Both the position numbers and the translations under genes were made by a program. Source: Acutalibacteraceae bacterium (GTDB taxonomy: Bacteria; Bacillota; Clostridia; Oscillospirales; Acutalibacteraceae). Taken from it: DNA of 64,000 bases. The notes beneath the pieces were generated by a model. The model worked only from the letters and a program-made list of their open reading frames with translations, was not told where the DNA came from and did no database searches. Below are positions 19,190-61,512 of this stretch, one piece after another. Every line of letters starts with the position of its first letter. Positions within the stretch are counted from its first letter, which is position 1. Location: contig JAZSNB010000118.1 in assembly GCA_045536195.1 (NCBI GenBank), positions 247 through 64,246 on the forward strand, in the 5' to 3' direction.

Positions 19190-19234
19190 CATAAAAATCA
19201 AGACACAACCTGTAAATTTTACAGATTGTGTCTT
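19190..19234 (-). terminator. Rho-independent terminator ending the T-box(Ile) operon after ilvE
   Basis: Minus strand has AAGACACAA-tctgtaaaatttacagg-TTGTGTCTT followed by GATTTTTAT. Confidence 0.6.
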
Positions 19235-19255
19235 GGGTTCAAATGAGATTTTTGA

Positions 19256-20317
19256 TTATACTTTATATGTCCAGCCCTTTGTGTCTTCCAGTATGCCCCA
19301 TTGGATGCCTGTGAGGGTGTCATAGAGCTTTTGGGTAAGGGTGCCTATGCAGTTATTGTTGATGACATACTCTTTGCCGTTATGGACAAGCTTTCCTATA
19401 GGAGAAATAACAGCAGCAGTGCCGCAGCCGAAGGCTTCCTCAAGGGTGCCGTTTTCGAGAGCGGAGATTATTTCGTCAACGCTGATTCTTCTTTCCTCGA
19501 CAGGGATTCCCTGATCCTTCAGAAGCTCTATAACAGAACGTCTTGTGATGCCGGGAAGAACTGTTCCGATAAGATCGGGAGTGACTACTTTTCCGTCGAT
19601 TCTGAACATAACATTCATGGAACCGACCTCTTCAACATACTTTCTTTCCACTCCGTCAAGCCAGAGCACCTGAGAGAAGCCGAGCTTTTCTGCTCTCTCG
19701 CCTGCCCTTGTGCTTGCGGCATAGTTGCCTCCGCACTTGGCATAACCCGTACCGCCCTTTACGGCTCGCACGTCCTGAGTTTCAATCATTATGCTTACGG
19801 GATTTATTCCCTCTTTATAATAGCTGCCGCTGGGGGAAGCTATTATTATAAACGAAGCCTCGTTTATACCGTGAAGTCCGAGATTTGCTTCGGTAGCAAT
19901 CATAAACGGACGGATATAAAGTGAGGTTCCCTCTTTGTGAGGCACGAAATCCTCTTCAAGCTTCACAAACTCGTGAAGAGCCTGCAAGGCATCATTCTCA
20001 TCGAGAACAGGCAGACACAGTCTTTCGGCAGAATCGTTCATTCTTCTGATATTATCAAGAGGTCTGAACATCTGCACACTGCCGTCTTTGGTTCTGTATG
20101 CCTTAAGTCCTTCAAACACCTCTGCGCCGTAGTGAAGCACCACAGCAGCAGGATGCAAAGACAAAGGTCCGAAGGGGACAATTCTTGCATCGTGCCAACC
20201 CTCAGCCTTATTATAATCCATAATAAACATATGGTCGGTATAAGTAAGACCGAAGCCGAGGTTATTTTCATCCGGCTTTTCCGACGGATGGGGATTAAGA
20301 ACTGTTTTTATATTCAT
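19256..20317 (-). CDS. ilvE: Branched-chain amino acid aminotransferase
   Basis: 353 aa (type IV PLP fold): GLTYTDHMF, EGLKAYR and GTGYAKCGGNYAAS. Confidence 0.9.
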   Translation of the reverse strand: MNIKTVLNPHPSEKPDENNLGFGLTYTDHMFIMDYNKAEGWHDARIVPFGPLSLHPAAVVLHYGAEVFEGLKAYRTKDGSVQMFRPLDNIRRMNDSAERLCLPVLDENDALQALHEFVKLEEDFVPHKEGTSLYIRPFMIATEANLGLHGINEASFIIIASPSGSYYKEGINPVSIMIETQDVRAVKGGTGYAKCGGNYAASTRAGERAEKLGFSQVLWLDGVERKYVEEVGSMNVMFRIDGKVVTPDLIGTVLPGITRRSVIELLKDQGIPVEERRISVDEIISALENGTLEEAFGCGTAAVISPIGKLVHNGKEYVINNNCIGTLTQKLYDTLTGIQWGILEDTKGWTYKV

Positions 20318-20329
20318 TTAATCGCCTTC

Positions 20330-20863
20330 TTAAAGAGCAGCACCTGTATTAAGTGCTTCAAGATTATATTTCAGCATATCCTGATGGCGTGCGGAAATAA
20401 CCTTATTAAGGGCAGCCTCAAGATTTTCGTTTCCGATTCCTTCAACTTCCTTGATTACCTTACCGGTGATGATCATATTTGCAAGTGTACTGATATTTTT
20501 TTCATTTGCAAGACCTGATGCGGGAACATAATACACATCAACGTCTGTTCTTTCAACCTTTCTTCCGATAAGAGTTGAGTCAACGAAAATCTTACCGCCG
20601 GGGGTAACTGCATTTTCATACTTATCAAGTGAAGGAAGATTCATAGCGATAAGCACGTCGGGCTTATCGACGATGGGTGAACCGATGGGATCATCGCTTA
20701 AAATAACTGAGCAGTTTGCAGTACCGCCTCTCATTTCGGGACCGTAGGAAGGAAGCCAGCTTACCTGTTTGCCCTCAATAAGACCCTTGTATGCAAGGAA
20801 TTTACCTGCAAAAAGAATACCCTGTCCGCCGAAGCCGGCAAAAAGCATATTAACAGTAGCCAT
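20330..20863 (-). CDS. 2-oxoacid:ferredoxin oxidoreductase, gamma subunit
   Basis: 177 aa: [17 protein letters not shown]...SYGPEMRGG. It lies 12 nt upstream of ilvE. Confidence 0.85.
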
Positions 20864-21624
20864 TATTCTGCCTCCTTTTCTGATGTTATATCCTTATAAA
20901 CACCTAAAGGATAGTAGGGAATCATATTCTCCTCAAGCCAGGTGAGAGCCTTTTCGGGAGTCATACCCCAGTTTGTGGGACAGGTGGAAACAACCTCAAT
21001 AAGAGAGAAGCCTTTTCCGTCTATCTGATTCTGGAAAGCCTTTTTGATAGCCTTCTTTGCATTTCTTACATTCTTTACGTTATTAACGGCAACTCTTTCA
21101 AGATAAGCTGCACCATCAACATTCTGAAGCATTTCGCATACCTTTACGGGATAGCCGACAGTGGATACATCTCTGCCGTAGGGTGAGGTCTGAGTAACCT
21201 GACCGGGAAGAGTTGTGGGAGCCATCTGACCGCCTGTCATACCGTAAATTGCATTGTTTACGAAAATAACGGTGATATTTTCTCTTCTTGCTGCAGCGTG
21301 AACTGTTTCTGCAGTACCTATAGCTGCAAGGTCACCGTCGCCCTGATATGTAAATACGATATTATCGGGATCTGATCTTTTAACACCTGTTGCAACAGCG
21401 GGAGCTCTGCCGTGAGCAGCCTGAACAAAGTCACAGGTAAAATAATTATATGCCATAACGGAACAGCCTACGGGAGCAACACCGATAGTCTTTCCTTCAA
21501 TGCCCAATTCATCAATAACTTCGGCAACAAGACGGTGGATTATACCGTGAGTACAGCCGGGACAATAGTGAAGAACTGCATCTGTAAGGGATTTGGGTTT
21601 CTGAAATACTATAGCCATACTCAA
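20863..21624 (-). CDS. 2-oxoacid:ferredoxin oxidoreductase, beta (TPP-binding) subunit
   Basis: 253 aa: CPGCTHG, GDGDLAAIG and NNAIYGMTGGQ. Its start and stop overlap the neighbouring subunit genes. Confidence 0.9.
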   Translation of the reverse strand: MSMAIVFQKPKSLTDAVLHYCPGCTHGIIHRLVAEVIDELGIEGKTIGVAPVGCSVMAYNYFTCDFVQAAHGRAPAVATGVKRSDPDNIVFTYQGDGDLAAIGTAETVHAAARRENITVIFVNNAIYGMTGGQMAPTTLPGQVTQTSPYGRDVSTVGYPVKVCEMLQNVDGAAYLERVAVNNVKNVRNAKKAIKKAFQNQIDGKGFSLIEVVSTCPTNWGMTPEKALTWLEENMIPYYPLGVYKDITSEKEAE

Positions 21625-22691
21625 GCCTCCTTTTCGTTTACTTCAACAATTTTTTCAAGCACCTGTTCGGGGGTGGGAATCATACCGCCTGTACGGCAGC
21701 AAAGGTGAACTTCCTTTTTACATCTGATGCTGAGCTCAATATCCTCTATCATCTGACCCATATTCATTTCAACAGAGATAAATGCCTTGCACTTATCGGC
21801 TGCCTTATTGAGCACTGCCTTGGGGAAGGGCCAGAGAGTGATGGGACGGATAAGTCCTGCCTTTATTCCCTTTTCGCGGGCAACATTTATTGCATTTTTT
21901 GCAACACGGGATGTGATACCGAATGCAACAACGCAGATTTCGGCATCATCCATAAGATATTCCTCATACATAGCCTCTGTTTCTTCAATGAGCTTGTATT
22001 TTTCATATCTTTCAAAATTCTTCTTTTCAAGCTCTTCAGGCTGAAGGAAAAGAGAGTTTACAATATTATGCTTTCTTTCACCCTTCGTGCCGGTTACAGC
22101 CCAGGGCTTTTCAACATTATATGTGCTTTCGATATCAAGAGAAACAGGCTCCATCATCTGACCCATTGTACCGTCGGCAAGAATCATTGAAACCATTCTG
22201 TATTTATCTGCAAGCTCAAAGCCCTTTACCGTAAGGCTTGCCATTTCCTGAACGGAAGCGGGAGCAAGGACAATATTGTGGAAGTCGCCGTGGCTTCCGC
22301 CCTTTACTGTCTGCCAATAGTCAGACTGAGAAGGCTGAATACCGCCGAGACCGGGGCCGCCTCTCTGAACATTTACAATAAGTGCGGGAAGATCACAGCC
22401 TGCAAGGTATGAAATACCCTCACTCTTGAGTGAAATTCCGGGGGAGGAAGAAGAGGTCATAACTCTTTTTCCGGTGGATGCTACACCTATAACCATATTG
22501 ATAGCGGCAATTTCGCTTTCAGCCTGAAGGAATGTGCCGCCGATTTTAGGCATTTTTTTGGACATATATGCCGCAACCTCAGTCTGAGGAGTAATAGGAT
22601 ATCCGAAGTAATGACGGCAGCCTGCCTTAATAGCGGCTTCAGCTATAGCTTCGTTACCCTTCATAAGTACCATATCGCTCATTTTTTTCAC
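21621..22691 (-). CDS. 2-oxoacid:ferredoxin oxidoreductase, alpha subunit
   Basis: 356 aa: LMKGNEAIAEAAIKAGCRHYFGYPITPQTE. Confidence 0.9.
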   Translation of the reverse strand: MKKMSDMVLMKGNEAIAEAAIKAGCRHYFGYPITPQTEVAAYMSKKMPKIGGTFLQAESEIAAINMVIGVASTGKRVMTSSSSPGISLKSEGISYLAGCDLPALIVNVQRGGPGLGGIQPSQSDYWQTVKGGSHGDFHNIVLAPASVQEMASLTVKGFELADKYRMVSMILADGTMGQMMEPVSLDIESTYNVEKPWAVTGTKGERKHNIVNSLFLQPEELEKKNFERYEKYKLIEETEAMYEEYLMDDAEICVVAFGITSRVAKNAINVAREKGIKAGLIRPITLWPFPKAVLNKAADKCKAFISVEMNMGQMIEDIELSIRCKKEVHLCCRTGGMIPTPEQVLEKIVEVNEKEA

Positions 22692-22894
22692 CTCTCAACA
22701 GTAATAACGCAATCGGGACACATTGTAGCACAGAAAGCACAGGCAATACAGGAAGCCTGATCTGTGATTTCTGCAGGATGGTGTCCTTTGATATTAAGGC
22801 GTGTTTCAGATAATTTAATAATTCCCTTGGGACAGGCGCCCACACAAAGGGAGCAGCCCTTGCAAAGGTCTTCATTGAATGTAACTTTTGCCAT
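22688..22894 (-). CDS. 2-oxoacid:ferredoxin oxidoreductase, delta subunit (2x[4Fe-4S] ferredoxin)
   Basis: 68 aa with CKGCSLCVGACP and CIACAFCATMCP motifs. Confidence 0.9.
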   Translation of the reverse strand: MAKVTFNEDLCKGCSLCVGACPKGIIKLSETRLNIKGHHPAEITDQASCIACAFCATMCPDCVITVER

Positions 22895-22908: not shown

Positions 22909-23565
22909 TCAGATAATTTTTTTCTGAAGCTCCATCGGGAAAAGCTTTATATCCGTTGTATCAAGCTTTTCGCAAAGAGATTTTTCCGCAGATGTGAATT
23001 TAACGGGAATGCCCGCCAACATAGAAAGTTTATCACTTTCTTCGGCAGAGGTCAAGAGTGCAGAAATATCTGTCAGCTCACCCAGATTTGAATTATTTAT
23101 AATTGCAGTGAATTTCATCTGACAGGCCTCTTCAATTTCCCTCATAACCTCATAAGCCCCGGAGGCGTCCGGGGTAAGAGGTCTGTATTTATTGAAAACA
23201 AAAAGAAATTCGTAATCGTTTTCTTCTTTTATTTTATCGGCATATCTGCCCAGGGCATATGCTCCCCTGTCGTCACCGCCCAGGTCTACAATATAATAGC
23301 TTTCCTTGTCGTCAACTATACTGTACATTTCCTGAGGAATTGCGGGAATATCAACATTTGAGTTTGCATACTCGGATGAAATAAGCTTTATGCCTGCATT
23401 CGTAAGCCTGTCAAGTGAATCCTTTGTTCTGAAATAAGGATTTACTATATCGAGGTCAGCTATAACCACAGGCAGCCCTTGCTTTTTCATTTTCAATGCC
23501 AAATTAACGGCAATGTTTGTTTTTCCCGAGCCGTAATGCCCTGCAATAATTGTTATTCTTTTCAT
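22909..23565 (-). CDS. SIMIBI-class P-loop NTPase (MinD/ParA/CooC-like)
   Basis: 218 aa with Walker A IIAGHYGSGKTNIAVNLA and DLD(I)VNP. It sits 14 nt upstream of the OFOR delta subunit and 5 nt downstream of the acyl-CoA synthetase fusion. Confidence 0.6.
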   Translation of the reverse strand: MKRITIIAGHYGSGKTNIAVNLALKMKKQGLPVVIADLDIVNPYFRTKDSLDRLTNAGIKLISSEYANSNVDIPAIPQEMYSIVDDKESYYIVDLGGDDRGAYALGRYADKIKEENDYEFLFVFNKYRPLTPDASGAYEVMREIEEACQMKFTAIINNSNLGELTDISALLTSAEESDKLSMLAGIPVKFTSAEKSLCEKLDTTDIKLFPMELQKKII

Positions 23566-23570
23566 ATTTC

Positions 23571-25838
23571 TTACAGCTTGTTTCTCTGAATCTTTCCGCT
23601 TATTGTCTTGGGAAGAGATTCTCTGAATACAACGATTCTGGGATATTTATAAGGAGCAGTATGCTCTTTTACATACTTCTGAATTTCCTTCTTAAGCTCT
23701 TCAGTAGGCTCAGTGCCCTTTGTAAGCACGATGCTTGCTTTTACTACCTGACCTCTGAGTTCATCAGGCTCTGCAGAAACACCGCATTCAAGAACATAAG
23801 GAAGCTCCATGATAACATTTTCGATTTCAAAGGGTCCTATACGGTAACCGGAGGACTTGATAACATCATCAACTCTGCCCACATACCAGAAATGTCCGTC
23901 TTCATCCTTCCATGCAAGGTCACCTGTGTGATAATAACCGTCGTGCCATACCTCATCGGTCTTTTCCTGCTGATTGTAATAGCCGAGGAAAAGTCCGCAG
24001 GGAACCTTTTCGGATGTACGAACAACAATTTCACCGTTTTCACCAAGCTGAGCGGGAGTGCCGTCTGCTTTTATTATATCTATATCATACATGGGATTAG
24101 CCTTGCCCATAGAACCGGGCTTAGGAGTAGTACCCACAAGATTTGCAATGGTAAGAGTGGTTTCGGTCTGTCCGAAGCCTTCCATAAGCTGAAGTCCCGT
24201 TGCTGCCTCAAACTGCTTGAAAACCTCGGGATTGAGCGCTTCACCTGCTATTGTGGCATGCTTTATTGAAGAAAGATCATACTTTGAAAGATCCTGCTTG
24301 ATAAGCATTCTGTACATAGTGGGAGGTGCACAGAAGGTGGTTATCTTGTATTTTGCAAACATAGGCAGAATTACCGATGCATCAAAGCGGTCAAAGTCAT
24401 AAACAAATACTGAGCCTTCGCAAAGCCACTGTCCGTAGAGCTTGCCCCAGAGTGCCTTACCCCAGCCGGTATCTGAAATTGTGAAATGAAGTCCGTCTTT
24501 ATTTACCGTGTGCCAGTATTTTGCCGTAACAAAATGGGCAAGAGGATATGAGAAGCTGTGGGTTGCAATTTTGGGATATCCTGTTGTACCCGATGTGAAG
24601 AACATAAGCATAGGTTCTTTTCCGCAGGCAGTATCATCTTCTCTTCTGAAACGGCGGGAGAAAAGCTTATATTCATTATCAAAGTTGTGCCAGCCCTCTC
24701 TGTCCTCTCCAACAACAATCTTTGTGGTAAGAGTGGGACACTTATCGGCACATTCATCAACGTGAGCGGGTGTGTTATCATCGGAAGTACAGACAATTGC
24801 ACTGACACCTGCTGCATTGAAGCGGTATTCAAAATCGTGAGCCTGCAGCTGATGAGTAGCGGGAATTACTATAGCACCAAGTCTGTGGAGTGCAAGAATA
24901 GAGAACCAGAACTGATAGTGACGCTTCAGCACAAGCATAACCCTGTCACCCTTTTTGATTCCCAATGATCTGAAATAGTTTGCTGTCTGACAGGAATATT
25001 CCTTTATCTGCTGATAAGTAAACACTCTCTCTGTCATATCCCTTGCTATATGAATCATAGCAGTTTTGTCGGGAGATTTCTTTGCGATCTTATCTACAAC
25101 ATCAAAAGCAAAATTGAATTCATCAGTGTTTTCGAAACCAATATCAAGAAGCTCACCGCGTTCATTTTCCACAGGCTTTACAAACTTGTGGCACACAAGA
25201 GATTCCGATACTCTTGCCTCGGGCATTATTCTGTTTTTTGCAATATCCTCGGGAGCCTCATCGGAAGCAAGGATAAATGCAAGGAAAACACAGTCTCTGC
25301 CGTCAACAGCAATCATTCCGTGAGGAGTTGAGCTCTTATAATAAATACTGTCACCCTCGTGAAGTATTTCGGTATGGTCGCCTACCTTTACCATAAGAGT
25401 TCCGCTTATAACCATATCAAACTCCTGACCTGCGTGGGTAGTTGTATGAATGGGTTTGTTTTCAAGATCGGCAGAATATTCATATCTTACCCAGTAGGGG
25501 TCACCCAGCTTATCCTTGAACAGAGGAGCAAGATTCTGTATTTCAATACCGTTTTCCTTGGCTGTAGTCTGCCCCTCACCTTTTCTTGTTACGGTATAGG
25601 ATGTAAGCTTTGCGCTGTGACCTTCGAGAAGGTCAGTTATACCGATATCAAAAGCAAGTGCACACTTATGTATAAATGAGAAAGGAAGATCTTCCGTTCC
25701 GCCTTCATAAGCCATATATTGCTCGGGGGATACTTCGGTTTTTTCTGCCATTTGCTCAACGGTAAATTCGCTTATAGAGCGCATTTCCTTAATTCGGCGA
25801 GCCACCTCATAAAGTTTATTGTTTGTTGTCGTAGCCAC
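23571..25838 (-). CDS. Fusion protein: XRE-family HTH + cupin sensor domain + AMP-forming (medium-chain type) acyl-CoA synthetase
   Basis: 755 aa with a GTG start 8 nt after AAAGGAGG. Residues about 8-75 form an HTH_XRE (RRIKEMRSISEFTVEQMAEKTEVSPEQYMAYEGG). Residues about 120-200 form a cupin (HAGQEFDMVISG...GDSIYYKSSTPHGM). The rest carries FFTSGTTGYPK, YHTGDLAWKDEDGHFWYVGRVDDVIKSSGYRIGPFEIE and PKTISGKIQR. Confidence 0.85.
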   Translation of the reverse strand: MATTTNNKLYEVARRIKEMRSISEFTVEQMAEKTEVSPEQYMAYEGGTEDLPFSFIHKCALAFDIGITDLLEGHSAKLTSYTVTRKGEGQTTAKENGIEIQNLAPLFKDKLGDPYWVRYEYSADLENKPIHTTTHAGQEFDMVISGTLMVKVGDHTEILHEGDSIYYKSSTPHGMIAVDGRDCVFLAFILASDEAPEDIAKNRIMPEARVSESLVCHKFVKPVENERGELLDIGFENTDEFNFAFDVVDKIAKKSPDKTAMIHIARDMTERVFTYQQIKEYSCQTANYFRSLGIKKGDRVMLVLKRHYQFWFSILALHRLGAIVIPATHQLQAHDFEYRFNAAGVSAIVCTSDDNTPAHVDECADKCPTLTTKIVVGEDREGWHNFDNEYKLFSRRFRREDDTACGKEPMLMFFTSGTTGYPKIATHSFSYPLAHFVTAKYWHTVNKDGLHFTISDTGWGKALWGKLYGQWLCEGSVFVYDFDRFDASVILPMFAKYKITTFCAPPTMYRMLIKQDLSKYDLSSIKHATIAGEALNPEVFKQFEAATGLQLMEGFGQTETTLTIANLVGTTPKPGSMGKANPMYDIDIIKADGTPAQLGENGEIVVRTSEKVPCGLFLGYYNQQEKTDEVWHDGYYHTGDLAWKDEDGHFWYVGRVDDVIKSSGYRIGPFEIENVIMELPYVLECGVSAEPDELRGQVVKASIVLTKGTEPTEELKKEIQKYVKEHTAPYKYPRIVVFRESLPKTISGKIQRNKL

Positions 25839-25860: not shown

Positions 25861-26127
25861 AAAATAAATCCGTCCCAAAGTAAAAAACTTTGAGACGGAA
25901 ACATAATACTTTTTCCGCGGTACCACTCAAATTGCGAAAACTATTGTTTTCACCGCTTCAGAGTCCGACAACTCCTTTGCACTAACGGGGCATTCCCGGG
26001 AAACACTACTGTTATTTCGCATTTCCGGCTCGGAAGCGATAGCCTGTTGAAAGAATCGTCTCACGGCTTGCACCAACCGCCGTTTCTCTGCATCGGATAT
26101 CTTTCAGGCCTCTTCGTCACAGCCATT
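25861..26127 (-). promoter_or_regulatory. T-box riboswitch leader, probable Ile (AUC) specifier
   Basis: On the minus strand, Stem I has a GA/K-turn (GGCUGUGACGAAG ... CUUCCGAGCC), an AGAGA bay and a GGUUGGUGCAA distal loop. A CCGUUA F-box-like element and a stem III follow. The T-box sequence is AAUUUGAGUGGUACCGCGG (25915-25933). The terminator is UCCGUCUCAAAG-uuuuuuac-CUUUGGGACGGA followed by a U-run. The antiterminator alternative UUUGAG/CUCAAA plus CGGAAA/UUUCCG is also present. Confidence 0.85.
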
Positions 26128-26133
26128 GACTGA

Positions 26134-26162
26134 ATAATATCACAACACTATTTATTTGTCAA
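26134..26162 (-). promoter_or_regulatory. Sigma-A type promoter for the T-box(Ile) operon
   Basis: Minus strand has TTGACA, a 17-nt spacer, then TATTAT. It sits just upstream of T-box Stem I. Confidence 0.6.
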
Positions 26163-26199
26163 CATCATAAAACTAATAAAATCAATTAAAAAAATTAAT

Positions 26200-32336: not shown

Positions 32337-35300
32337 TTACATTAATCTGCCGAATATCTGAGTGATATTGGAAATAATTCTGTAGAACCAGTTAACAAGT
32401 CTCTGCCAGAAGGAAAGCTGTACTTCTTCTACTGCAGAATCGGTAGCACACTTTGCATAGCAGGTATAGGGTGCGCCGTCGATATTTGTTACAGTACAGA
32501 TAATAAACTTTCCGCTGTCGGCATCTGTGAGAGTGTAAGCATCTGTGCCTGAAGCAACCTTAACACCGTTTCTGGGATCATCCTCGGGATCATCAATTCT
32601 GTACCATTCAAACCAGAGATAATCATATGCGCCCTGAGGAATGTCATTTGTGATAACATAAAGTGACTTTCCGCTCTGAGCTGTACCTGTGAATGAAATA
32701 GCAATATTGAGCTCTGAGGGTTCAACAGTAAGAGTGATATACTGTGTGATTGTTGCATAGTTCTGAGTGTTGAAGGGAGTGAATACTACCTTATAAACAT
32801 CAGCGAAGGTGCCTACTTCAAGAGGAGTAGTTGTGGGATTCTCCATTGAGAATGTACCGAATTCTGTTCCGACATAGCTTGAAGTATACTTAACTGTTGA
32901 AAGCTTCTGGCCGTAGCCTACGGTACCTGTAAGAGGAAGTACAACGCCGGGAGTCTTTGCCTTGAGGATTTCAACATTAAGAGTGGGATTAAGAAGTCTC
33001 AGTTCATAGTTGCCTGACTTTGCACCTGCAAGTGCGGGCATTGTATACTTAACACTCTTGATGCCGGCATTTTCGTCAGCAACAGTACCCTGGATGGGGA
33101 ATGTGCCTTCAAGGAATACATCATTTGCACCGTCGGAGCCATAGAGGTTTGTAATAGCAGAGAAGCTTACGTCAACATTAAGATTGCCGGGAGCATATTC
33201 TCTGTCCTTTGCAACAGCTTCAACATAAGCAGGACGCTTATTGACTGTTACCATACCGTTTTTGTAGATAAAGTCGTAGTTGTCGCTTTCAAAAGCACCT
33301 GTAAGAACGACATCATACTGACCGACATCACTGCCTGCCTGATATGAGCAGTTCATAAGAACATAACCGTCAACATCATTCTTAATGGTATCAGCACCTG
33401 TAAGACCTGATACATTGTAGTAGTATGTGGGTTCAATATCACCGTATGTAACAGTGAAGTTAGCAGCTGTAATTGTTACAACTGTCTTAAGAATTTCAAC
33501 CTCTACTTCATATTCAACGGTTGCGTAGTTGTTTGTATCATCGGGAGTGTAAATTGCCTTGTAGGTATGTACACCGGCACCGGGAACTGTATTTGCAACA
33601 TCTGCTGCCCATGCCCAACGGCTGTCACCGAGGGAGATAGCATTAAGAGGTCTTGCACTGTCGTAGTAAAGAACATCTGTCATGGGAATGGGATAGAAGG
33701 GAGTTGCCTTAAGAATCTGAACCTTAAGACCGTCAAGGTTTGTAAGCTCAAGCTCGTAGTTACCGGCCTTTGAGCCTGTAAGAACAGCACCTGATACAGT
33801 TACATTTCTGAGACCTGCTCTGTAGTTATCAATAGCACCCTGAACAAGAGATTCATCAACATATACAAAGCCGTCATCGCCTTCTGCAAGTGTGTTGCCG
33901 ACGGGTTCAAAGCTGAGGTCTACATAGTAGTTGTTCTCTTCATATTCTCTTTCAACGGGAACAACCTTAACCTTAAGAGTTCTCTTTGTAATGTCAGCCT
34001 TTGAATCGTTTGACATTGAAACAAGAAGCTCATAGTTATCGGCAGCTGAGCCCTTGAGCACAGCATTATTTATAAATACATCAATATCAGTGCCGACATT
34101 TGTTGATGCGAAGTAGTAAATTGCAGCTTCGCTGTCAAAAGCAACATCATCCGAAGTTCCGTCTGCAAGAGTCATAGCACCGTATTCTTCAGTTACTGTG
34201 GCTTCTGCTGCACCTGTGCCGTCATATACCTTGTCGAGAACCTCAACATTTACATAATAGGGAGCAGGTGTGATAACAAGTGTACCGATCTTGTAGTTTG
34301 CTACGGGAGAGTAAACAACCTGACCGTCTACTGTTGTAAGACCGTTTACTGTCTGAAGCTTTGTGAAATCAACATCGGGAGTATCGATATCGATAGTAAC
34401 TGTGTAATAACCTACTTCTGTGGGGGCGGAGACAGAGCCGTTGTACTTAACGGTAACATTACCGATAGCGGCACTTGAAAGGCTCTTGTCGTCTCTGTGG
34501 AATTCTACATAGTGAGGCTGAGCATTATATGTATATTCTGCATCGCCGCCGTATGTGGAAAGACCTGCAAGATCGAAATAATTATCATATGCATCTGCAC
34601 CGAGAATAGTTTCAACCTTTGTAAGAGAAGGCGCAATAACAGTTGTTACATAAACAACCTCACCTGTGTAAGGAGCATTTGCAACAGCCTTTACTGTGAG
34701 CTTCTGGTTCTTGTGAGCTTCGGCAAGAACGATTTCTGCACCTGTGCCTACCTGAACATTTGAAGCATTGTACCATGTAAGAGTGTATACACCGATTTCA
34801 TCGGGATCAAGACCTGTTACATCAACAGTAAGCTTTTCACCTACCATGGGAATACCTGCAACAGCGAGTGTACCGCTGACGGGCTTCTTATTAACTGTAA
34901 GAGCAACATAAAGACCTGATACTGAATTGTAGTTTACTGTATCTGCGGGAACGAATGTTGCAGTGTAAATTGTATAAGCCTCTGCGCGGTATGCGGGAGT
35001 TGTTGAAGCTGCGTTATAAACGTATTTACCGGTTACGCCGTTTTCAACGTTGCCGCCTGCAAATACTGCATCGCCGAGAGTCTGACCGTGAACGATTGTT
35101 GCAGTGGGAAGAGTAAGAACTCTGGGAGTTGCCTTGATAACAGTAATAACACCGTGCTGAACTGTTACTGTGTAGTTATTGAATGTAGCATCGGTAACAT
35201 CAACAGTAACAGGATAACCGTCTTTATTTACGGGTGAGCCCTTTTCATAGGTTGTGTCAATCTTTATCTTACCTGAAGAAACAACCTCATCTGCTGTTTC

Positions 35301-38300
35301 ATTTCTCTTTGCACCTACAACAGAGAATGCATTTTCAATATCAGCAGGAATTGCACTGCCGTATTCAAGTGTGATGTCATCAGCCTTGATAACAAGCTGT
35401 GCCTTTGTAACCTTGAGGCTACCTGCAGTTGTAGCTACTTCATAGTTGGGAGATGTGATGAAATTGGGAGTAGCCTTGATATAGTATGTACCTACCTGAT
35501 AGTTGTCGATATATCTGAAGTCGGTTGAATACTCAAATGTGGGAGCAGCGCCGCTTGCAGTAACATCTTCAATTGTATCAGTACCGACAAGAAGAGCTTC
35601 GTCATAAGAAACCTTTACAGTAGATGCAGAGGGAACAAAGTTGTCACCGTAGATTGCGGTTGCATCCTCAACCTTGAAGGTGATAAGTCTGGGTTTAACA
35701 GTGATAACACCGTCTGAAGTTGTAAATGTATAGTTACCGTTTACATCAACAAAGTTGGGAGCAGAAATTTCAACTGCATAGCCGCCCTCAACAACAGGTG
35801 AGCCCTTTACATAATCTGTATGAGGAGTGATATTACCTGATGTGGTAACAGCATCAATATTAAACGTAGGATCAAGGTCAGCCTTATATGTATAAGCTGT
35901 GATATTGGGGATATTGTCACCGTAGGAAACTGAGCCGGCATAGGATATAACAACGGGAGTTGCCTTAACCTTAATTGCAATATCAACTACCTTGACTTCA
36001 TAGTTATTAAGATCCTGAGGAACATACTGTGCCTTGTAGGTTGCAACTTTTACTGTGGGATTAATTGTTGCATCCACCCACTGCCATGAGCCTTCTACAG
36101 AGGATGTGTAGCCTGTGAGCTCAACATCCTTAAGGGTTCTTGCATTCTGATAATACATTTCCTCAACAACGGGAGTTGTAACTGTGGGAACACCCTTAAG
36201 AATGGTTACAAGAAGTGTTGCGCCTGACTTATATATAACATCAGCTACATAGTAGTTCTTTCCCGCACCGCCTGTTACAAGGTCTGCAACAGACTGCTTT
36301 GTAATACCGCTTACTTCTCTTATACCTGCAGTATTGTCACTGAGTCCACCTGAAGCAGCAAGAATACGGACGTCGTCAACACCGAATTTACCGTCTGTGA
36401 TTGTGAAGGTAACTTCTACATTATAATTATCGGGAGCATATGCTCTGTCTTTTGCCACAGCCTCAACCTTTATAGGTCTCTGAGAAACTCTGAGAACACC
36501 TTCAGCGTTGGCATCCTGACCGTAAGCATATACATATTCATAGTTTGAAAGAAGCTCGGGAACATCTGTGAAGGTTGCACGGATGTAGTAAGAGCCTACT
36601 GCAACCTCACCGGCAACATAAGGAACATAGCTGTCGCCGTTGAGAATCATATAGCTGAGTGCATTTGCTATTGTCTGCTTTGCAGCATCTCCTGTGTCGT
36701 TACCTACAAGACCTGTGATGGTAACGGAATAAGGAGTATCAAATGTATCATTACCGTATACTACTGCGGCAGCATTGGGTCTGATGGTAAGAGGAGCCTT
36801 CTTTACACTGAACTCAACATTGAACTGGGTTGCCTTATAGTTCTTTGCTGTGGGAGCAGCGGAGTATGTGGGAGTCCATGTGATTGAAACGATCTGGTTG
36901 TCGCCCACAGTCTTGAAGGATGAGCCGTCAGCAGCATTTGTAAAGGAGAATACACCTGTGAGATTTGATTCGTTTACAATTCCCTTTGCCGAATAGGTTG
37001 AAAGCTGAAGTATTTCATTGAGCTTCTGACCGTAGGTAAGTGAAACGGTTTCGGGAAGTGTGCCTCTGAGAATGGAAGCCTGCTCGATTATAAGAGTAAA
37101 GGTATATTCAAGAGCGTGTCTGTTCTTATTGTGCTTGGGGTCTTTGTTATAGGTTGTGCTTTCGGCAATATTGAGGGTTACCTCATAAGTACCTGCATTT
37201 ACGGGAAGCTGACCGGATTCACTTGTTTCCTTCACACCTGCTTCGTTTGTACCGGTGTAGGAATAAGTAACACTAATAAGGTCGCTGTCTGTGAAGTCAA
37301 GGTTATAGTCCCTTGAATAATCGGTCTGCATAATTGCATCAATAACCTGAAGACCTATATCGGTTGCCTTTATGGGAGAGCCTGTATAGGTGGTCGTGGC
37401 AACATTTGATGTGCCTACCTTTGCCTTGATGTCATTGGCATCAAGTCTACCGTAGTCAACAAAGATATAAATGGGGCCGTTGGTTGCGGGAGCTGCACCG
37501 TCTGCGGCACCCTGTGAACCGAAGGTTTTGAAAACAGTACCCTTGTTATTTAAAGATGTAACATTGTAATCGGATAACCATGCATCGGATATTGCATAAG
37601 TAATATTTACAAGTCCCCAATAGTAGCTGTTGCAGGATTCTGCACCTGAGATATACTTGATAGAAGCATCGGGAGACTTTGTAAGTATGCTCTGACCTGT
37701 TACACCTGAAAGATTCACAAGTGAATTTACAACATCAGTGCCGTCTGTAAGAGGCATAAATGAGTAACCTACATTGCCTTCATCACCGACGATAGATGTG
37801 TCGATAGCAGTCTTGTTCTTATCAACCCAATATCTGTAAACAACGTGAACACGGTTTTTGCCTTCAAGAGCACCGCGGACAATAGATGTGGGAATACCGT
37901 TTACGTTGGTAACAATACTTCCGGCATAGCTGTTATTAGCTTCGTCAAGGAAGTTATTTGCAACAACAGCAGCAGAAGGTGTTACAATAACATATTCGGT
38001 GTAGGACATCATGTAATTTACAATATCATGGGCTGATTTTATCATTTCAGAAGAAGAAACAACAGAGCCCTTACGATATGTAACATTAACATCAGAATTC
38101 ATGCAATTCTCTGCAGGAGTTGTTATCGTTACGTCGGGAAGAACAGGGAGATTTCCTGAAACGGTATAAATACCGCCGCCGAAAAGAAACTGCTGTCCGT
38201 TACCGTCAGAGGTTACCGCATCAATACTGTTTATATTTGCATCATGTGTAATATTACCGCCGGTGATATTAATACTGCCGCTGGTTGCAATGCCGTATGC

Positions 38301-39236
38301 TATTGAGGTAATTCGGGCTCTACCGTCACTCGCATTACCGCCATAAGTATTACGGTGATGATTACCCTGTGATGTAACCGTCATTGTGGTTGCGGATGAA
38401 ACATTAACATTACCGCCGTAAACACCGTAAGCTACAGCAGCAGTGGAGGTTCTTTCACCGTCATCGCACTGGGAGGTCATTGAGCCCTGTCCCTGAGCAT
38501 AAACGGTAATTTCTGCAGCATTGATGCTGCAGGTAGCTGCAGCGGATGTGTTATAAACTGCAGTTGCTGCAGATGAAACCTGTGAAGACTCTTCTGTTAT
38601 AAGCGAACCACCAACACTTATTTCATAATGAAGAGTGGAATTGACATTTATTTTAACACCCTTATTGATTGTAAGGTTGCCTTCATTTCTGATAGCCTCA
38701 AGGTTAGCATAGCTGAGCTCTTTTTTGCCTGCACCCATTCCGGTTCTGACATTAACAATGCTTATAGAAGCTGTATTGGAAGTGGCATTCACGGATGAGC
38801 CGCTGTAGATATTAAGGTTACCCTTGTTGTGGATACCGTAAACATAGGGCAGCTGCCATGCACCGTCAGAGGAACGGTCAAAAACAACAGTACCGCCGTT
38901 CATAAAGAAGTTGACCGTCAGTCCCTGCGGAATAACAATACCTGTAATTCCGGAGCCGAAGGTAGCTGTTGATGTATTTGTCAAAACAACAGATGCCGAG
39001 GGTCCTGACAATTTCATATTAACGACAGTGCCCGGGGCAAAAGAACTGAGCTTGTTGTTTATATCAGCAACAGTTGCATTAGCCGGTATAACATATTCTT
39101 CAGCTGCAGAAGCAACAGGAAGAATATCTGCCGATAAGGTGGGGAGAACAGAAAGGGACATAACAACAGCAAGAAGCATAACAATCACTTTTGCTGTCAC
39201 TTTTGCAAATCTGCTCTGTGATGAATTATTTTTCAC
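32337..39236 (-). CDS. Giant (2299 aa) secreted adhesin-like protein: signal peptide, beta-helix-like N-terminal region, many YDG/MBG-type repeats, amphipathic aromatic C-terminal tail
   Basis: It is an uninterrupted 6.9 kb ORF. The signal peptide is ...VIVMLLAVVMSLSVLPTLSA. Modules of the form KVYDGT / KDR(A/E)YAP and YGD..P...G.Y....NY....G.L.V.K recur. I see no LPXTG, SLH or dockerin. The protein ends in FWQRLVNWFYRIISNITQIFGRLM. Confidence 0.85.
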   Translation of the reverse strand: MKNNSSQSRFAKVTAKVIVMLLAVVMSLSVLPTLSADILPVASAAEEYVIPANATVADINNKLSSFAPGTVVNMKLSGPSASVVLTNTSTATFGSGITGIVIPQGLTVNFFMNGGTVVFDRSSDGAWQLPYVYGIHNKGNLNIYSGSSVNATSNTASISIVNVRTGMGAGKKELSYANLEAIRNEGNLTINKGVKINVNSTLHYEISVGGSLITEESSQVSSAATAVYNTSAAATCSINAAEITVYAQGQGSMTSQCDDGERTSTAAVAYGVYGGNVNVSSATTMTVTSQGNHHRNTYGGNASDGRARITSIAYGIATSGSINITGGNITHDANINSIDAVTSDGNGQQFLFGGGIYTVSGNLPVLPDVTITTPAENCMNSDVNVTYRKGSVVSSSEMIKSAHDIVNYMMSYTEYVIVTPSAAVVANNFLDEANNSYAGSIVTNVNGIPTSIVRGALEGKNRVHVVYRYWVDKNKTAIDTSIVGDEGNVGYSFMPLTDGTDVVNSLVNLSGVTGQSILTKSPDASIKYISGAESCNSYYWGLVNITYAISDAWLSDYNVTSLNNKGTVFKTFGSQGAADGAAPATNGPIYIFVDYGRLDANDIKAKVGTSNVATTTYTGSPIKATDIGLQVIDAIMQTDYSRDYNLDFTDSDLISVTYSYTGTNEAGVKETSESGQLPVNAGTYEVTLNIAESTTYNKDPKHNKNRHALEYTFTLIIEQASILRGTLPETVSLTYGQKLNEILQLSTYSAKGIVNESNLTGVFSFTNAADGSSFKTVGDNQIVSITWTPTYSAAPTAKNYKATQFNVEFSVKKAPLTIRPNAAAVVYGNDTFDTPYSVTITGLVGNDTGDAAKQTIANALSYMILNGDSYVPYVAGEVAVGSYYIRATFTDVPELLSNYEYVYAYGQDANAEGVLRVSQRPIKVEAVAKDRAYAPDNYNVEVTFTITDGKFGVDDVRILAASGGLSDNTAGIREVSGITKQSVADLVTGGAGKNYYVADVIYKSGATLLVTILKGVPTVTTPVVEEMYYQNARTLKDVELTGYTSSVEGSWQWVDATINPTVKVATYKAQYVPQDLNNYEVKVVDIAIKVKATPVVISYAGSVSYGDNIPNITAYTYKADLDPTFNIDAVTTSGNITPHTDYVKGSPVVEGGYAVEISAPNFVDVNGNYTFTTSDGVITVKPRLITFKVEDATAIYGDNFVPSASTVKVSYDEALLVGTDTIEDVTASGAAPTFEYSTDFRYIDNYQVGTYYIKATPNFITSPNYEVATTAGSLKVTKAQLVIKADDITLEYGSAIPADIENAFSVVGAKRNETADEVVSSGKIKIDTTYEKGSPVNKDGYPVTVDVTDATFNNYTVTVQHGVITVIKATPRVLTLPTATIVHGQTLGDAVFAGGNVENGVTGKYVYNAASTTPAYRAEAYTIYTATFVPADTVNYNSVSGLYVALTVNKKPVSGTLAVAGIPMVGEKLTVDVTGLDPDEIGVYTLTWYNASNVQVGTGAEIVLAEAHKNQKLTVKAVANAPYTGEVVYVTTVIAPSLTKVETILGADAYDNYFDLAGLSTYGGDAEYTYNAQPHYVEFHRDDKSLSSAAIGNVTVKYNGSVSAPTEVGYYTVTIDIDTPDVDFTKLQTVNGLTTVDGQVVYSPVANYKIGTLVITPAPYYVNVEVLDKVYDGTGAAEATVTEEYGAMTLADGTSDDVAFDSEAAIYYFASTNVGTDIDVFINNAVLKGSAADNYELLVSMSNDSKADITKRTLKVKVVPVEREYEENNYYVDLSFEPVGNTLAEGDDGFVYVDESLVQGAIDNYRAGLRNVTVSGAVLTGSKAGNYELELTNLDGLKVQILKATPFYPIPMTDVLYYDSARPLNAISLGDSRWAWAADVANTVPGAGVHTYKAIYTPDDTNNYATVEYEVEVEILKTVVTITAANFTVTYGDIEPTYYYNVSGLTGADTIKNDVDGYVLMNCSYQAGSDVGQYDVVLTGAFESDNYDFIYKNGMVTVNKRPAYVEAVAKDREYAPGNLNVDVSFSAITNLYGSDGANDVFLEGTFPIQGTVADENAGIKSVKYTMPALAGAKSGNYELRLLNPTLNVEILKAKTPGVVLPLTGTVGYGQKLSTVKYTSSYVGTEFGTFSMENPTTTPLEVGTFADVYKVVFTPFNTQNYATITQYITLTVEPSELNIAISFTGTAQSGKSLYVITNDIPQGAYDYLWFEWYRIDDPEDDPRNGVKVASGTDAYTLTDADSGKFIICTVTNIDGAPYTCYAKCATDSAVEEVQLSFWQRLVNWFYRIISNITQIFGRLM

Positions 39237-61294: not shown

Positions 61295-61433
61295 AACCCA
61301 TTATTTTGTGATTTGACGGATGCGATTTTGTGTATTTGTACGCACCCTTACGACACAAATCATGCCGAAGAGGTATCCGCCGAATTTTCGATAGCCTCTT
61401 ACCTCGTCACGAAAAAATTCCGTCTGGCGCTAA
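61295..61433 (-). ncRNA. glmS ribozyme (GlcN6P-dependent self-cleaving riboswitch)
   Basis: Minus strand reads A/GCGCCAGACGG...GUGACGAGG...GAGGCUAUCGAAAAUUCGGCGGAUACCUC...GUCGUAAGG. This matches the conserved core I remember from Bacillus glmS ribozymes. It lies directly upstream of glmS. The 3' boundary is approximate. Confidence 0.85.
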
Positions 61434-61512
61434 ACGGTATGTCCGTCTTAGACACACAAGTCCCATAAATATTATGGACTTGTTTTGGAAAAATAAAACT
61501 TATATATTTTTC

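Follow-up and report, generated by a model that had tools for sequence, protein, structure and literature searches.

If the N-terminal part of a metabolic enzyme has the architecture of a transcription factor, then it may bind DNA and make the protein a trigger enzyme. Alternatively, such a module may serve the enzyme itself, as a sensor, a structural part or a second catalytic domain. This question is raised by one gene in the window (the whole 64-kb stretch of DNA that was analysed), whose product carries an XRE-type helix-turn-helix (HTH) and a cupin, together called the N-module here, in front of an acyl-CoA synthetase (ACS). The gene and its domains are located as follows:

23571..25838, minus strand: coding sequence of the 755-aa HTH-cupin-ACS fusion (HCA type I), from the open reading frame list, Pfam and the ribosome-binding site
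25620..25799, minus strand: XRE-type HTH, residues 14-73 (Pfam HTH_19, E 8.5e-10, exceeding the gathering score)
25278..25442, minus strand: Cupin_2 core, residues 133-187 (Pfam, E 1e-11), with the invariant H135, E139 and H173
23592..25091, minus strand: Macs-type ACS, residues 250-749 (Pfam AMP-binding and AMP-binding_C; match to PDB 3ETC)

The gene is a single uninterrupted frame that starts with GTG, with a GGAGG ribosome-binding site 8 nt 5' of the start. In its ACS part, AMP-binding covers residues 250-621 (E 1.7e-63) and AMP-binding_C residues 671-749 (E 1.6e-20). Its ANL core motifs are all preserved (TSGTTGYPK, GFGQTET, YHTGD, GRVDDVIKSSGYRIGPFEIE and PKTISGKIQR), including the A10 lysine, and the invariant columns agree with a Macs-type enzyme. 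The closest solved relative is M. acetivorans Macs (MacsMa, 3ETC), with which residues 238-753 align end to end (E 2.5e-191). Pfam and this full alignment therefore bear out the first-pass annotation, which had described an HTH_XRE and a cupin joined to a complete medium-chain-type ACS.

That the fusion might be an assembly artefact, a concern raised in the same annotation, is dispelled by its phyletic distribution. The module is encoded in at least 591 species-representative genome stretches, and all 111 complete copies in 80 loci are fused, each covering query residues 1-755. Similarly, each of the best 120 homologues in the database has a length of about 755 aa and the identical four-domain set. 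With 111 one-frame fusions from independent assemblies and a mean column identity of 68% across the N-module, the fusion is, with near certainty, neither a product of faulty assembly or annotation nor a remnant in decay. The 755-aa protein of the window had no record in an exact-sequence look-up, and HCA proteins are named just 'AMP-binding protein' in the database. The literature searched contained no account of the fusion or of the T-box-controlled pathway at gene level, although such absence is not proof of novelty.

The region directly 5' of the gene indicates which amino acid its expression follows. Two elements were found there:

25888..26129, minus strand: Ile T-box leader, directly 5' of the fusion gene (Rfam RF00230, model positions 1-219, E 4.3e-19)
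26134..26162, minus strand: sigma-70 promoter TTGACA-17-TATTAT with a TG extension, the top promoter match of the region (11/12)

The leader scores 90.6 bits, 2.4 below the gathering score of 93. Orthologous Ile leaders fall on both sides of the gathering score (103.6 in L027 and 104.9 in L010; 89.8 in L065 and 83.9 in L001), and a 117.1-bit RF00230 match among the leaders scanned in relatives is a Leu leader. The parts of a T-box are present, namely a Stem I specifier AUC at 26040..26038, the T-box sequence GGTGGTACCGCG and an intrinsic terminator at 25899..25869. In 40 type I orthologues the specifier reads AUC, and about 20 more have ATC at the equal offset before CTTC, followed by C, as read by eye. 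Related genes lie behind other T-boxes: a paralogous fusion, type V, has the specifier GUA or GUC in a Val T-box 5' of the gene, and CUC precedes LeuA/TIM-ACS, with a TIM-barrel-ACS behind a Leu T-box. The fusion gene thus opens an Ile T-box operon, as had been proposed. A strong, constitutive-looking promoter, whose layout recurs in 90 related promoters, would drive this operon, and the AUC T-box would gate it, with readthrough only when tRNA-Ile is uncharged.

The genes that follow on the same strand are consistent with this amino acid specificity:

22909..23565, minus strand: P-loop NTPase/ATPase, CbiA/MinD/ParA-like (Pfam), which by synteny always adjoins the ACS gene
22688..22894, minus strand: VorD-like 68-aa ferredoxin-like subunit for 2x[4Fe-4S], with two CxxCxxCxxxCP motifs
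20330..22691, minus strand: 2-oxoacid:ferredoxin oxidoreductase (VOR) alpha, beta and gamma, VorB-type (Pfam; NCBIfam VorB, 546 bits against a cutoff of 399)
19256..20317, minus strand: IlvE branched-chain aminotransferase, the last gene of the operon (NCBIfam, 477 bits against a cutoff of 307)

Genes that match the VorD-like frame in size and position in L095 and L097 have Fer4 matches. A terminator scan placed the operon end at 19235..19199, and between the T-box terminator and this site no strong terminator (more than 7 stem pairs) was found on the coding strand. The P-loop ATPase, vorDABC and ilvE genes fit a salvage route from 2-methylbutyrate to isoleucine. In such a route, the fusion enzyme would convert 2-methylbutyrate, ATP and CoA to 2-methylbutyryl-CoA, the co-transcribed VorDABC would reductively carboxylate this to 2-oxo-3-methylvalerate, and IlvE would complete isoleucine by transamination. 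The fusion gene would then encode an Ile-dedicated, short branched-chain acyl-CoA ligase.

The presumed substrate is in keeping with the nearest characterised enzymes. S. aureus MbcS activates 2-methylbutyrate and isobutyrate. For MacsMa, 2-methylbutyrate is the favoured substrate (PMC10455477). MbcS is also the top NCBIfam family for the window ACS (NF047394), although at 432.4 bits against a cutoff of 850 the protein is no MbcS equivalog. The substrates of both enzymes suit the Ile and Val T-box context, and MacsMa, the Ile T-box and the operon content together suggest that the fusion enzyme probably activates 2-methylbutyrate toward isoleucine. It differs from MacsMa and MbcS in that an XRE-cupin module has been described for neither, and in that its role would be amino acid salvage rather than the priming of membrane fatty acids.

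Does the N-module bind DNA? The great majority of the XRE-cupin proteins characterised so far act locally, repressing transcription of metabolic genes next to their own (PMC7901475), and with E. coli PuuR and SutR and P. aeruginosa ErfA, PsdR and PauR the N-module shares the order of an XRE-type HTH followed by a cupin, the Pfam families (HTH_3/HTH_19 and Cupin_2) and an H-x3-E...P-H cupin motif; its profile matches 1Y9Q and SinR. On this basis the protein could be a true trigger enzyme whose N-module binds an operator at the Ile, and perhaps the Leu, promoter under the control of the substrate, the acyl-AMP or the end product, so that together with the T-box it would form a two-input gate. 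Enzymes of this kind are known. BirA is the classical DNA-binding adenylate-forming enzyme. The acyl-CoA synthetase FadD1 of P. aeruginosa was recently reported to bind promoters (PMC12754631). The first-pass view that such an enzyme would be unusual therefore needs qualifying. Like BirA, PutA and FadD1, the fusion is a single polypeptide with a metabolic enzyme and an at least nominal DNA-binding domain. However, those three have been demonstrated to bind DNA, which is doubtful for the fusion; the folds and domain orders also differ, and none of the three is paired with a T-box.

The main reason for doubt is the HTH itself. In AlphaFold2 (AF2) models it forms five helices (pLDDT 81-97), but it fails to present the neutral or basic surface, with polar or basic residues at the contact positions, that would suit DNA. 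Its net charge is about -6 in the aligned stretch, in contrast to +3 in PuuR and +4 in SutR, two XRE-cupins with experimentally established DNA binding, and the mean is -6.4 in 70 type I copies and -4.5 in 40 type V copies. Reference values are +4 for 434 cI, 0 for SinR and -4 for the alpha-domain of HppE. Additionally, conservation reaches at least 90% for E28, E39 and D50, which occupy canonical DNA-contact positions at the beginning of helices 2 and 3 and in the loop after helix 3. At these positions R, K, H or S is found in PuuR and SutR. The window N-module is just 14-16% identical to PuuR and SutR. Judged from its sequence, the HTH thus argues against ordinary DNA binding, although acidity only lowers the likelihood of such binding.

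A second line of evidence concerns possible operators, for which the following sites are relevant:

26185..26199, no strand assigned: 15-bp palindrome ATTAA-N5-TTAAT, 20 nt 5' of the -35 hexamer, conserved in position in L001-L003
26163-26177: degenerate second palindrome site, abutting the -35 hexamer
30519..30533, no strand assigned: palindrome copy, ATTAG-N5-TTAAT on the minus strand, within a terminator-like hairpin 5' of the Leu T-box promoter

ATTAR-N5-YTAAT has only two matches in the 64-kb window, each 5' of a T-box promoter, and no other regulator genes were found within 12-42 kb. In L001-L003 the palindrome lies at -37 of the Ile promoter, and the Leu promoters have a one-mismatch version at a different, variable distance. 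A second clade (L008 and L009) has ATTAC-N5-GTAAT at -36 of both the Ile and the Leu promoters. Of the two ranges in which operators had been suggested, 26130-26200 does contain a palindrome, and the other copy lies about 40 nt outside 30440-30480. These observations favour a trigger enzyme, but of about 84 loci only some 10 have the palindromes, which are absent from about 70 others. A search for 5-N5-5 palindromes in 90 promoters of orthologous and paralogous genes, anchored at -35, found no shared operator; what most of the 90 share is a UP-like T/A tract and TTGACA-17-TGnTATAAT. The HCA family thus differs from XRE-cupin transcription factors in having no family-wide palindromic operator, as well as in the covalent joining of the N-module to an enzyme.

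Moreover, the site ATTACAAAATGT(A/T)TC is constant across loci whose helix 3 sequences differ (SVEQYLV, TVEQYLV, TVAQYKD and TPELYNE). A palindrome that stays constant while the recognition helix varies freely argues for another binder. The palindrome sites abut weak -35 hexamers, whereas loci without sites have a UP-like tract and a consensus -35, and to judge by this arrangement the palindrome looks like the activator site of a separate factor. As HCA operators, ATTAR-N5-YTAAT and ATTAC-N5-GTAAT were therefore rejected: they are real and position-specific, but because they occur in about 10 loci only and do not covary with helix 3, they are not attributed to the fusion protein. CodY-box-like sequences were seen by eye 5' of some promoters (e.g. 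L011, L012 and L027). Taken with the charge of the HTH and its E28, E39 and D50, the palindrome results speak against DNA binding by the HTH, on which the trigger-enzyme idea turns, and a trigger enzyme is accordingly considered unlikely, if still a serious candidate.

In the cupin pocket, H135, E139 and H173 are invariant and align with the H138/E142/H180 motif of HppE, and they probably hold a metal. The top Foldseek matches of the N-module in the PDB are HppE, HEPD and MPnS (1ZZ7 and 2BNM first, E 6e-10); a sequence search against the PDB gave weak matches only. In these Fe(II) phosphonate enzymes a cupin is combined with an HTH-like alpha-domain that is acidic and has no part in binding DNA. 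Sequence identity to them is below 20%, O2- or H2O2-dependent chemistry is unlikely because the organisms appear to be gut anaerobes, and no phosphonate genes were found in the 80 loci, where the neighbours are ACS, VOR and IlvE. The fold search does not separate enzyme-type from regulator-type XRE-cupins (HppE and 1Y9Q both at about 1e-9). The metal triad was rejected as a discriminator between sensor and transcription factor, as PuuR and SutR hold equal positions in their H-x3-E...PH motif.

The 2-His-1-Glu triad shared with HppE raises the idea that the cupin is itself a metal-dependent enzyme, such as an isomerase or epimerase, acting on a substrate or product of the pathway. The neighbouring Leu-linked ACS paralogue has an N-terminal domain of enzyme-type fold (AP_endonuc_2 in Pfam), and by analogy that TIM-barrel might likewise be catalytic. 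However, ACS, VOR and the aminotransferase suffice for a pathway that requires no extra chemistry, and the triad positions are found in the non-enzymatic PuuR and SutR as well. Type V presumably acts on isobutyrate, which is achiral, so an epimerase role could not be general. A catalytic cupin is thus regarded as highly improbable.

Comparison of the paralogues points to the N-module as the part in which they differ most. Type I and type V are 0.48 identical in the HTH, 0.54 in the cupin and 0.72 in the ACS part, while identities within a type are 0.65-0.78. Type-specific positions are concentrated in the N-module, with 10.8 per 100 aa against 2.5 in the ACS part. Four of them (P129D, H131E, F140C and N168D) adjoin the invariant H135, E139 and H173. 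In the ACS part, G460A is type-specific and lies in a segment that Acs structures would place in the acyl-binding pocket.

The N-module also exists as a separate protein. Stand-alone homologues of about 185 aa, the size of XRE-cupin transcription factors, match it with E 1e-35 to 1e-58, have an HTH net charge of -2 to -11 and, like XRE-cupin transcription factors, lie beside a metabolic gene. Their genes are on the same strand as the next gene and -4 to 75 nt 5' of it (L081, L086-L088, L089, L090/L091 and L092), and in the examples examined that gene always encodes a Macs-type ACS. Where enough sequence was covered, its product is 48-53% identical to the window ACS part; the next gene in L090 shows 43.7% identity over the 71 residues covered, and in L081 and L086-L087 a complete ACS of about 550 aa follows. 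The N-module is an ancient, obligate partner of a Macs-type ACS clade: gut and rumen Clostridia have the two fused, and other lineages encode the N-module in a gene of its own. A gene immediately 5' of the ACS gene is also the arrangement of a regulator and its target, which a trigger enzyme would share.

Such a partnership could be mainly structural, with the N-module serving ACS oligomerisation, or docking to VOR or the P-loop ATPase for acyl-CoA channelling, and sensing no ligand. HppE and HEPD employ this two-domain unit without DNA binding, and segment 75-110 is strongly conserved yet poorly modelled by AF2 as a monomer, as is typical of intermolecular contacts. In L090/L091 the stand-alone and ACS genes overlap by 4 nt, an arrangement that points to translational coupling and hence to production in stoichiometric amounts. 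A purely structural role would, however, not account for the N-module being the most divergent part between the Ile and Val paralogues, and invariant H135, E139 and H173 ringed by type-specific changes indicate a functional pocket. A purely structural module is therefore thought improbable.

The reading that we favour, tentatively, is that the N-module senses a ligand and thereby regulates the enzyme, rather than acting as a classical repressor. A small molecule specific to the pathway, at the simplest guess isoleucine or its 2-oxoacid, would occupy the cupin pocket and so tune the ATP-consuming first step. The acidic XRE-like domain would, as in HppE, mediate oligomerisation or contacts between proteins. 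RNA-level control and putative small-molecule sensing would then be joined in one protein, a part of the first-pass proposal that is supported here. Functional parallels would be the ACT subunit IlvN/IlvH of AHAS and the C-terminal domain of LeuA, each an end-product sensor on or beside a first committed enzyme, which are sometimes encoded by a separate adjacent gene and sometimes fused. The fold of the HCA module is nevertheless unrelated to theirs (XRE-like and cupin, in contrast to ACT and LeuA_dimer).

Several observations count against the sensor reading. A regulator gene directly 5' of its target fits the local repressors that make up most characterised XRE-cupins, and a conserved palindrome stands at both window promoters with no other regulator gene nearby. 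AF2 predicts the domains confidently but not their relative placement (pTM 0.45 for the N-module and 0.61 for the full-length protein): the full-length model has flexible tethers at 74-91 and 193-210 (pLDDT <50) and no confident docking of the N-module onto the ACS. The cupin motif also occurs in PuuR and SutR.

A broader form of the sensor reading is put forward more cautiously still. The XRE-like and cupin domains may represent an unrecognised regulatory class for adenylate-forming enzymes, that is, a DNA-independent and probably metal-dependent sensor of branched-chain amino acids or 2-oxoacids, with its own tuning in each of the Ile and Val paralogues, which would exert feedback control on the ATP-consuming entry into salvage on top of T-box gating.

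That gut and rumen anaerobes form Val, Ile and Leu from branched-chain fatty acids has long been known from physiology, but the genetics behind it are poorly defined. The loci described here suggest a modular design, in which three ligases behind Leu, Ile and Val T-boxes feed one common VOR/IlvE set, and the Ile and Val ligases bear a conserved regulator-like module in at least 590 species. If the N-module is an allosteric sensor, then a fold known for DNA binding has been recruited to regulate an enzyme. Alternatively, if it binds DNA, then the enzyme itself would provide a rare combination of protein-level and riboswitch-like control. Either outcome would be relevant to the use of isoacids in ruminant nutrition and to the amino acid economy of the gut microbiome.

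The protein had been proposed in the first-pass annotation to be an XRE-type helix-turn-helix (HTH) and cupin module fused in frame to a complete acyl-CoA synthetase (ACS). This architecture is confirmed by a single unbroken frame in the ORF list, by a GGAGG ribosome-binding site 8 nt 5' of the start codon, and by four Pfam domains:

23571..25838, minus strand: HTH-cupin-ACS gene, 755 codons, GTG start
Residues 14-73: HTH_19
Residues 133-187: Cupin_2
Residues 250-621: AMP-binding
Residues 671-749: AMP-binding_C

Additionally, PDB 3ETC matches residues 238-753 (E 2.5e-191), and the ANL core motifs are all intact. The phyletic distribution was surveyed by scanning one genome per species with an alignment built from the first 243 residues. 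The HTH and cupin part (N-module) was found in at least 591 confirmed stretches, and among the matches listed nearly all hosts are Clostridia of the gut or rumen (Oscillospiraceae, Acutalibacteraceae, Christensenellaceae, Lachnospiraceae, and Ruminococcus), the nearest locus being L001, from an Oscillospiraceae MAG (95% amino-acid identity). The 80 loci fetched yielded 111 full-length fusions of 754-769 aa, each complete copy covering query residues 1-755. The best 120 hits of a full-length search were likewise ~755 aa with the identical four Pfam domains, and 'AMP-binding protein' was their sole name, where any was given. The family has no annotation beyond this name, and a description of it was not found in the searchable literature. 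It joins an XRE-cupin module and a Macs-type ACS, both of known kinds.

The gene had also been placed first in an operon controlled by an isoleucine T-box, and a leader with the corresponding specifier was indeed identified:

25888..26129, minus strand: Ile T-box leader (Rfam; whole model matched, E 4.3e-19, 90.6 bits)
26040..26038, minus strand: Ile T-box specifier, AUC
25899..25869, minus strand: Ile T-box terminator
26162..26134, minus strand: near-consensus promoter TTGACA-17-TATTAT with TG extension, 5' of the Ile T-box
30192..30434, minus strand: Leu T-box, specifier CUC, 5' of a LeuA-like gene and a TIM-barrel-ACS fusion gene (TIM-ACS)

The Ile T-box is below the Rfam gathering score (90.6 vs. 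93 bits) and was recovered with E-value reporting; as both T-boxes of the window score 90-91 bits, default annotation would overlook them. Same-strand operon members 3' of the fusion encode a CbiA/MinD-like P-loop NTPase, a 68-aa 2x[4Fe-4S] protein, three subunits (alpha, beta, and gamma) of a 2-oxoacid:ferredoxin oxidoreductase (VOR; alpha above the curated VorB cutoff), and an IlvE aminotransferase above its curated cutoff. No strong terminator-like site was found by a terminator scan 3' of the fusion until 19235..19199.

T-boxes activate genes in response to their uncharged cognate tRNA, and the operon is therefore read as anabolic. Conversion of 2-methylbutyrate to isoleucine by reductive carboxylation is a classical rumen-bacterial route, known from the physiology of the 1960s-70s. 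In this operon, the fusion ACS would convert 2-methylbutyrate to 2-methylbutyryl-CoA, reductive carboxylation would yield 2-oxo-3-methylvalerate, and the latter would be converted to isoleucine. Of the NCBIfam families, MbcS, the branched short-chain ligase of S. aureus, fits the ACS best, with a score under its cutoff, and the preferred substrate of MacsMa (3ETC) is 2-methylbutyrate (PMC10455477). It is probable that the operon serves this salvage of 2-methylbutyrate to isoleucine, the ACS function and the T-box context being well supported.

The P-loop NTPase (22909-23565, minus strand; 218 aa; CbiA/MinD/ParA-like) is always encoded next to the ligase, with the gene for the ferredoxin-like VorD on its other side, and in the related locus L090 its gene and that of a stand-alone XRE-cupin protein are divergent. 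Its low cysteine count sets it apart from NifH-like proteins; it may help to mature or assemble VOR. Elsewhere in the window are a very large ORF just upstream of the cluster (32337-39236, minus strand; 2299 aa) and a glmS ribozyme/riboswitch (61308-61442, minus strand; 65.4 bits, above the gathering score).

Many genomes have a tandem pair of HTH-cupin-ACS genes, each with its own promoter and T-box. Type I proteins, the orthologues of the window protein, are at least 66% identical to it and have specifier AUC, type V proteins are ~62% identical to the window protein and have a Val specifier (GUA or GUC), and the LeuA/TIM-ACS unit has specifier CUC. Ile, Val, and Leu T-boxes gate three separate ligases, and one P-loop NTPase/VorDABC/IlvE set is common to all three. 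The modular T-box design was seen in the window and in other loci, L010 and L027 among them. Few ACS residues are strictly type-specific; one is G460A in the DTGWGK segment, which presumably lies in the acyl-binding pocket, as in Acs structures; the change is consistent with a type V pocket made smaller to take isobutyrate.

In the Leu unit, TIM-ACS (26200-28698, minus strand; 832 aa) has a xylose-isomerase-like TIM barrel (AP_endonuc_2, residues 56-237) N-terminal to a complete ACS. It is co-transcribed with the LeuA-like gene behind the Leu (CUC) T-box, is kept in many related loci at 55-85% identity, and is presumably an isovalerate-specific ligase. The LeuA-like gene (28698-30101, minus strand) starts at 30101, and not at 30272, as a mechanical ORF call that runs into the T-box would have it. 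Its identity to the L001-L003 counterpart is only 45-47% (85-95% for flanking genes), and its product is well under the NCBIfam LeuA cutoffs (266 bits vs. 532); it may have been replaced by a xenologue or may encode a divergent synthase other than LeuA.

If the fusion is a trigger enzyme, as the first-pass annotation suggested, then its N-module should bind DNA. The XRE plus cupin layout matches XRE-cupin factors, mostly local repressors that bind palindromes as dimers (PMC7901475). Stand-alone N-module homologues also exist (~185 aa; E 1e-35 to 1e-58) and, in all contexts examined, are directly 5' of the next same-strand gene (4-nt overlap to 75-nt gap), which, where sequence suffices, encodes an ACS of the Macs type that has 48-53% identity to that of the window protein (complete, ~550 aa, in L081 and L086-L087). 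However, the HTH is strongly acidic: its net charge is -6 in the window protein, -6.4 on average in type I (n=70), -4.5 in type V (n=40), and -2 to -11 in stand-alone homologues. In contrast, E. coli PuuR and SutR, for which experiments have shown DNA binding, have +3 and +4 over the same aligned stretch, and the HTHs of 434 cI and SinR have +4 and 0; the non-DNA-binding HppE alpha-domain has -4. E28, E39, and D50 (start of helix 2, start of helix 3, and loop after helix 3) are at least 90% conserved, whereas PuuR and SutR have R, K, H, or S there. Furthermore, 90 type I and type V promoters aligned on the -35 hexamer have in common only a UP-like T/A tract and TTGACA-17-TGnTATAAT, and many type V -35 hexamers are a few nt from the preceding gene's stop codon, so that an operator would hardly fit upstream. 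HppE, HEPD, and MPnS, whose HTH-like domain is structural, are among the best structural matches of the N-module, but because the uncharacterised regulator 1Y9Q scores similarly, fold alone cannot decide on DNA binding. The XRE-cupin architecture of the proposed trigger enzyme stands, and the trigger-enzyme reading is possible but less likely, given the acidic HTH, the conserved E28, E39, and D50, and the lack of an operator common to the 90 promoters.

The palindrome ATTAR-N5-YTAAT has exactly two matches in the 64-kb window (0.70 expected), and a degenerate site accompanies one of them:

26185-26199: copy at the Ile promoter, 20 nt 5' of the -35 hexamer
26163-26177: degenerate second site, abutting the Ile -35 hexamer
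30519-30533: copy 5' of the Leu T-box promoter, ~43 nt 5' of the -35 in the window clade

The Ile-promoter layout (upstream site plus site abutting the -35) is kept in L001-L003. The same layout, but with ATTAC-N5-GTAAT, recurs in a second clade (L004, L005, L008, L009, L096, and L097), and L008 and L009 have this palindrome at the Leu promoter too. In other loci the motif has no more than a background frequency (~1 per 117 kb) and is missing from these promoters, so the clade-specific 15-bp palindrome is a genuine cis-element. Three findings speak against the fusion protein as its binder. First, ~70 other loci are without the palindrome. Second, the putative recognition helix differs (SVEQYLV, TVEQYLV, TVAQYKD, and TPELYNE) between loci whose proximal site, ATTACAAAATGT(A/T)TC, is identical. 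Third, ATTAC-clade sites abut weak -35 hexamers (TTGAAA, TTGCAA, and TTTACA); the window clade has TTGACA/TTGACT, and loci without the palindrome, such as L095, have a UP-like tract and a consensus -35. Judged from promoter sequence, the ATTAC-clade palindrome looks like a class-II-type activator site of a different factor; within 12-42 kb of the window, no further regulator gene was found. A hairpin at 30507-30545 (18 pairs, then a T run) is terminator-like, of the upstream gene. The ATTAG-N5-TTAAT palindrome is retained in its apical part, and its outer arms covary among the window, L001, and L002; the hairpin may have a double role as terminator and protein-binding site.

The ACS part is 72% identical between type I and type V and 78% within each type, compared with 48% (HTH) and 54% (cupin) between types and 65-74% within types for the N-module. 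Type-specific positions number 10.8 per 100 aa in the N-module vs. 2.5 in the ACS part, and P129D, H131E, F140C, and N168D flank the invariant cupin residues H135, E139, and H173. Since both the identity drop and the type-specific positions are concentrated there, the N-module carries, at the sequence level, most of the difference between Ile and Val proteins. It is always paired with one ACS clade, as an adjacent gene, an overlapping gene, or a fusion. No docking of the N-module on the ACS was supported by AF2 (pTM 0.61; flexible tethers, pLDDT <50 at 74-91 and 193-210). Our favoured, though tentative, reading is that the N-module is a ligand-sensing regulatory module of the ACS that does not bind DNA, which fits the obligate ACS pairing, the invariant pocket residues, and the DNA-unfriendly HTH. 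Our preferred guess is that the end product or the 2-oxoacid would exert feedback through the N-module, in a logic analogous to that of IlvN on AHAS and of the LeuA regulatory domain.
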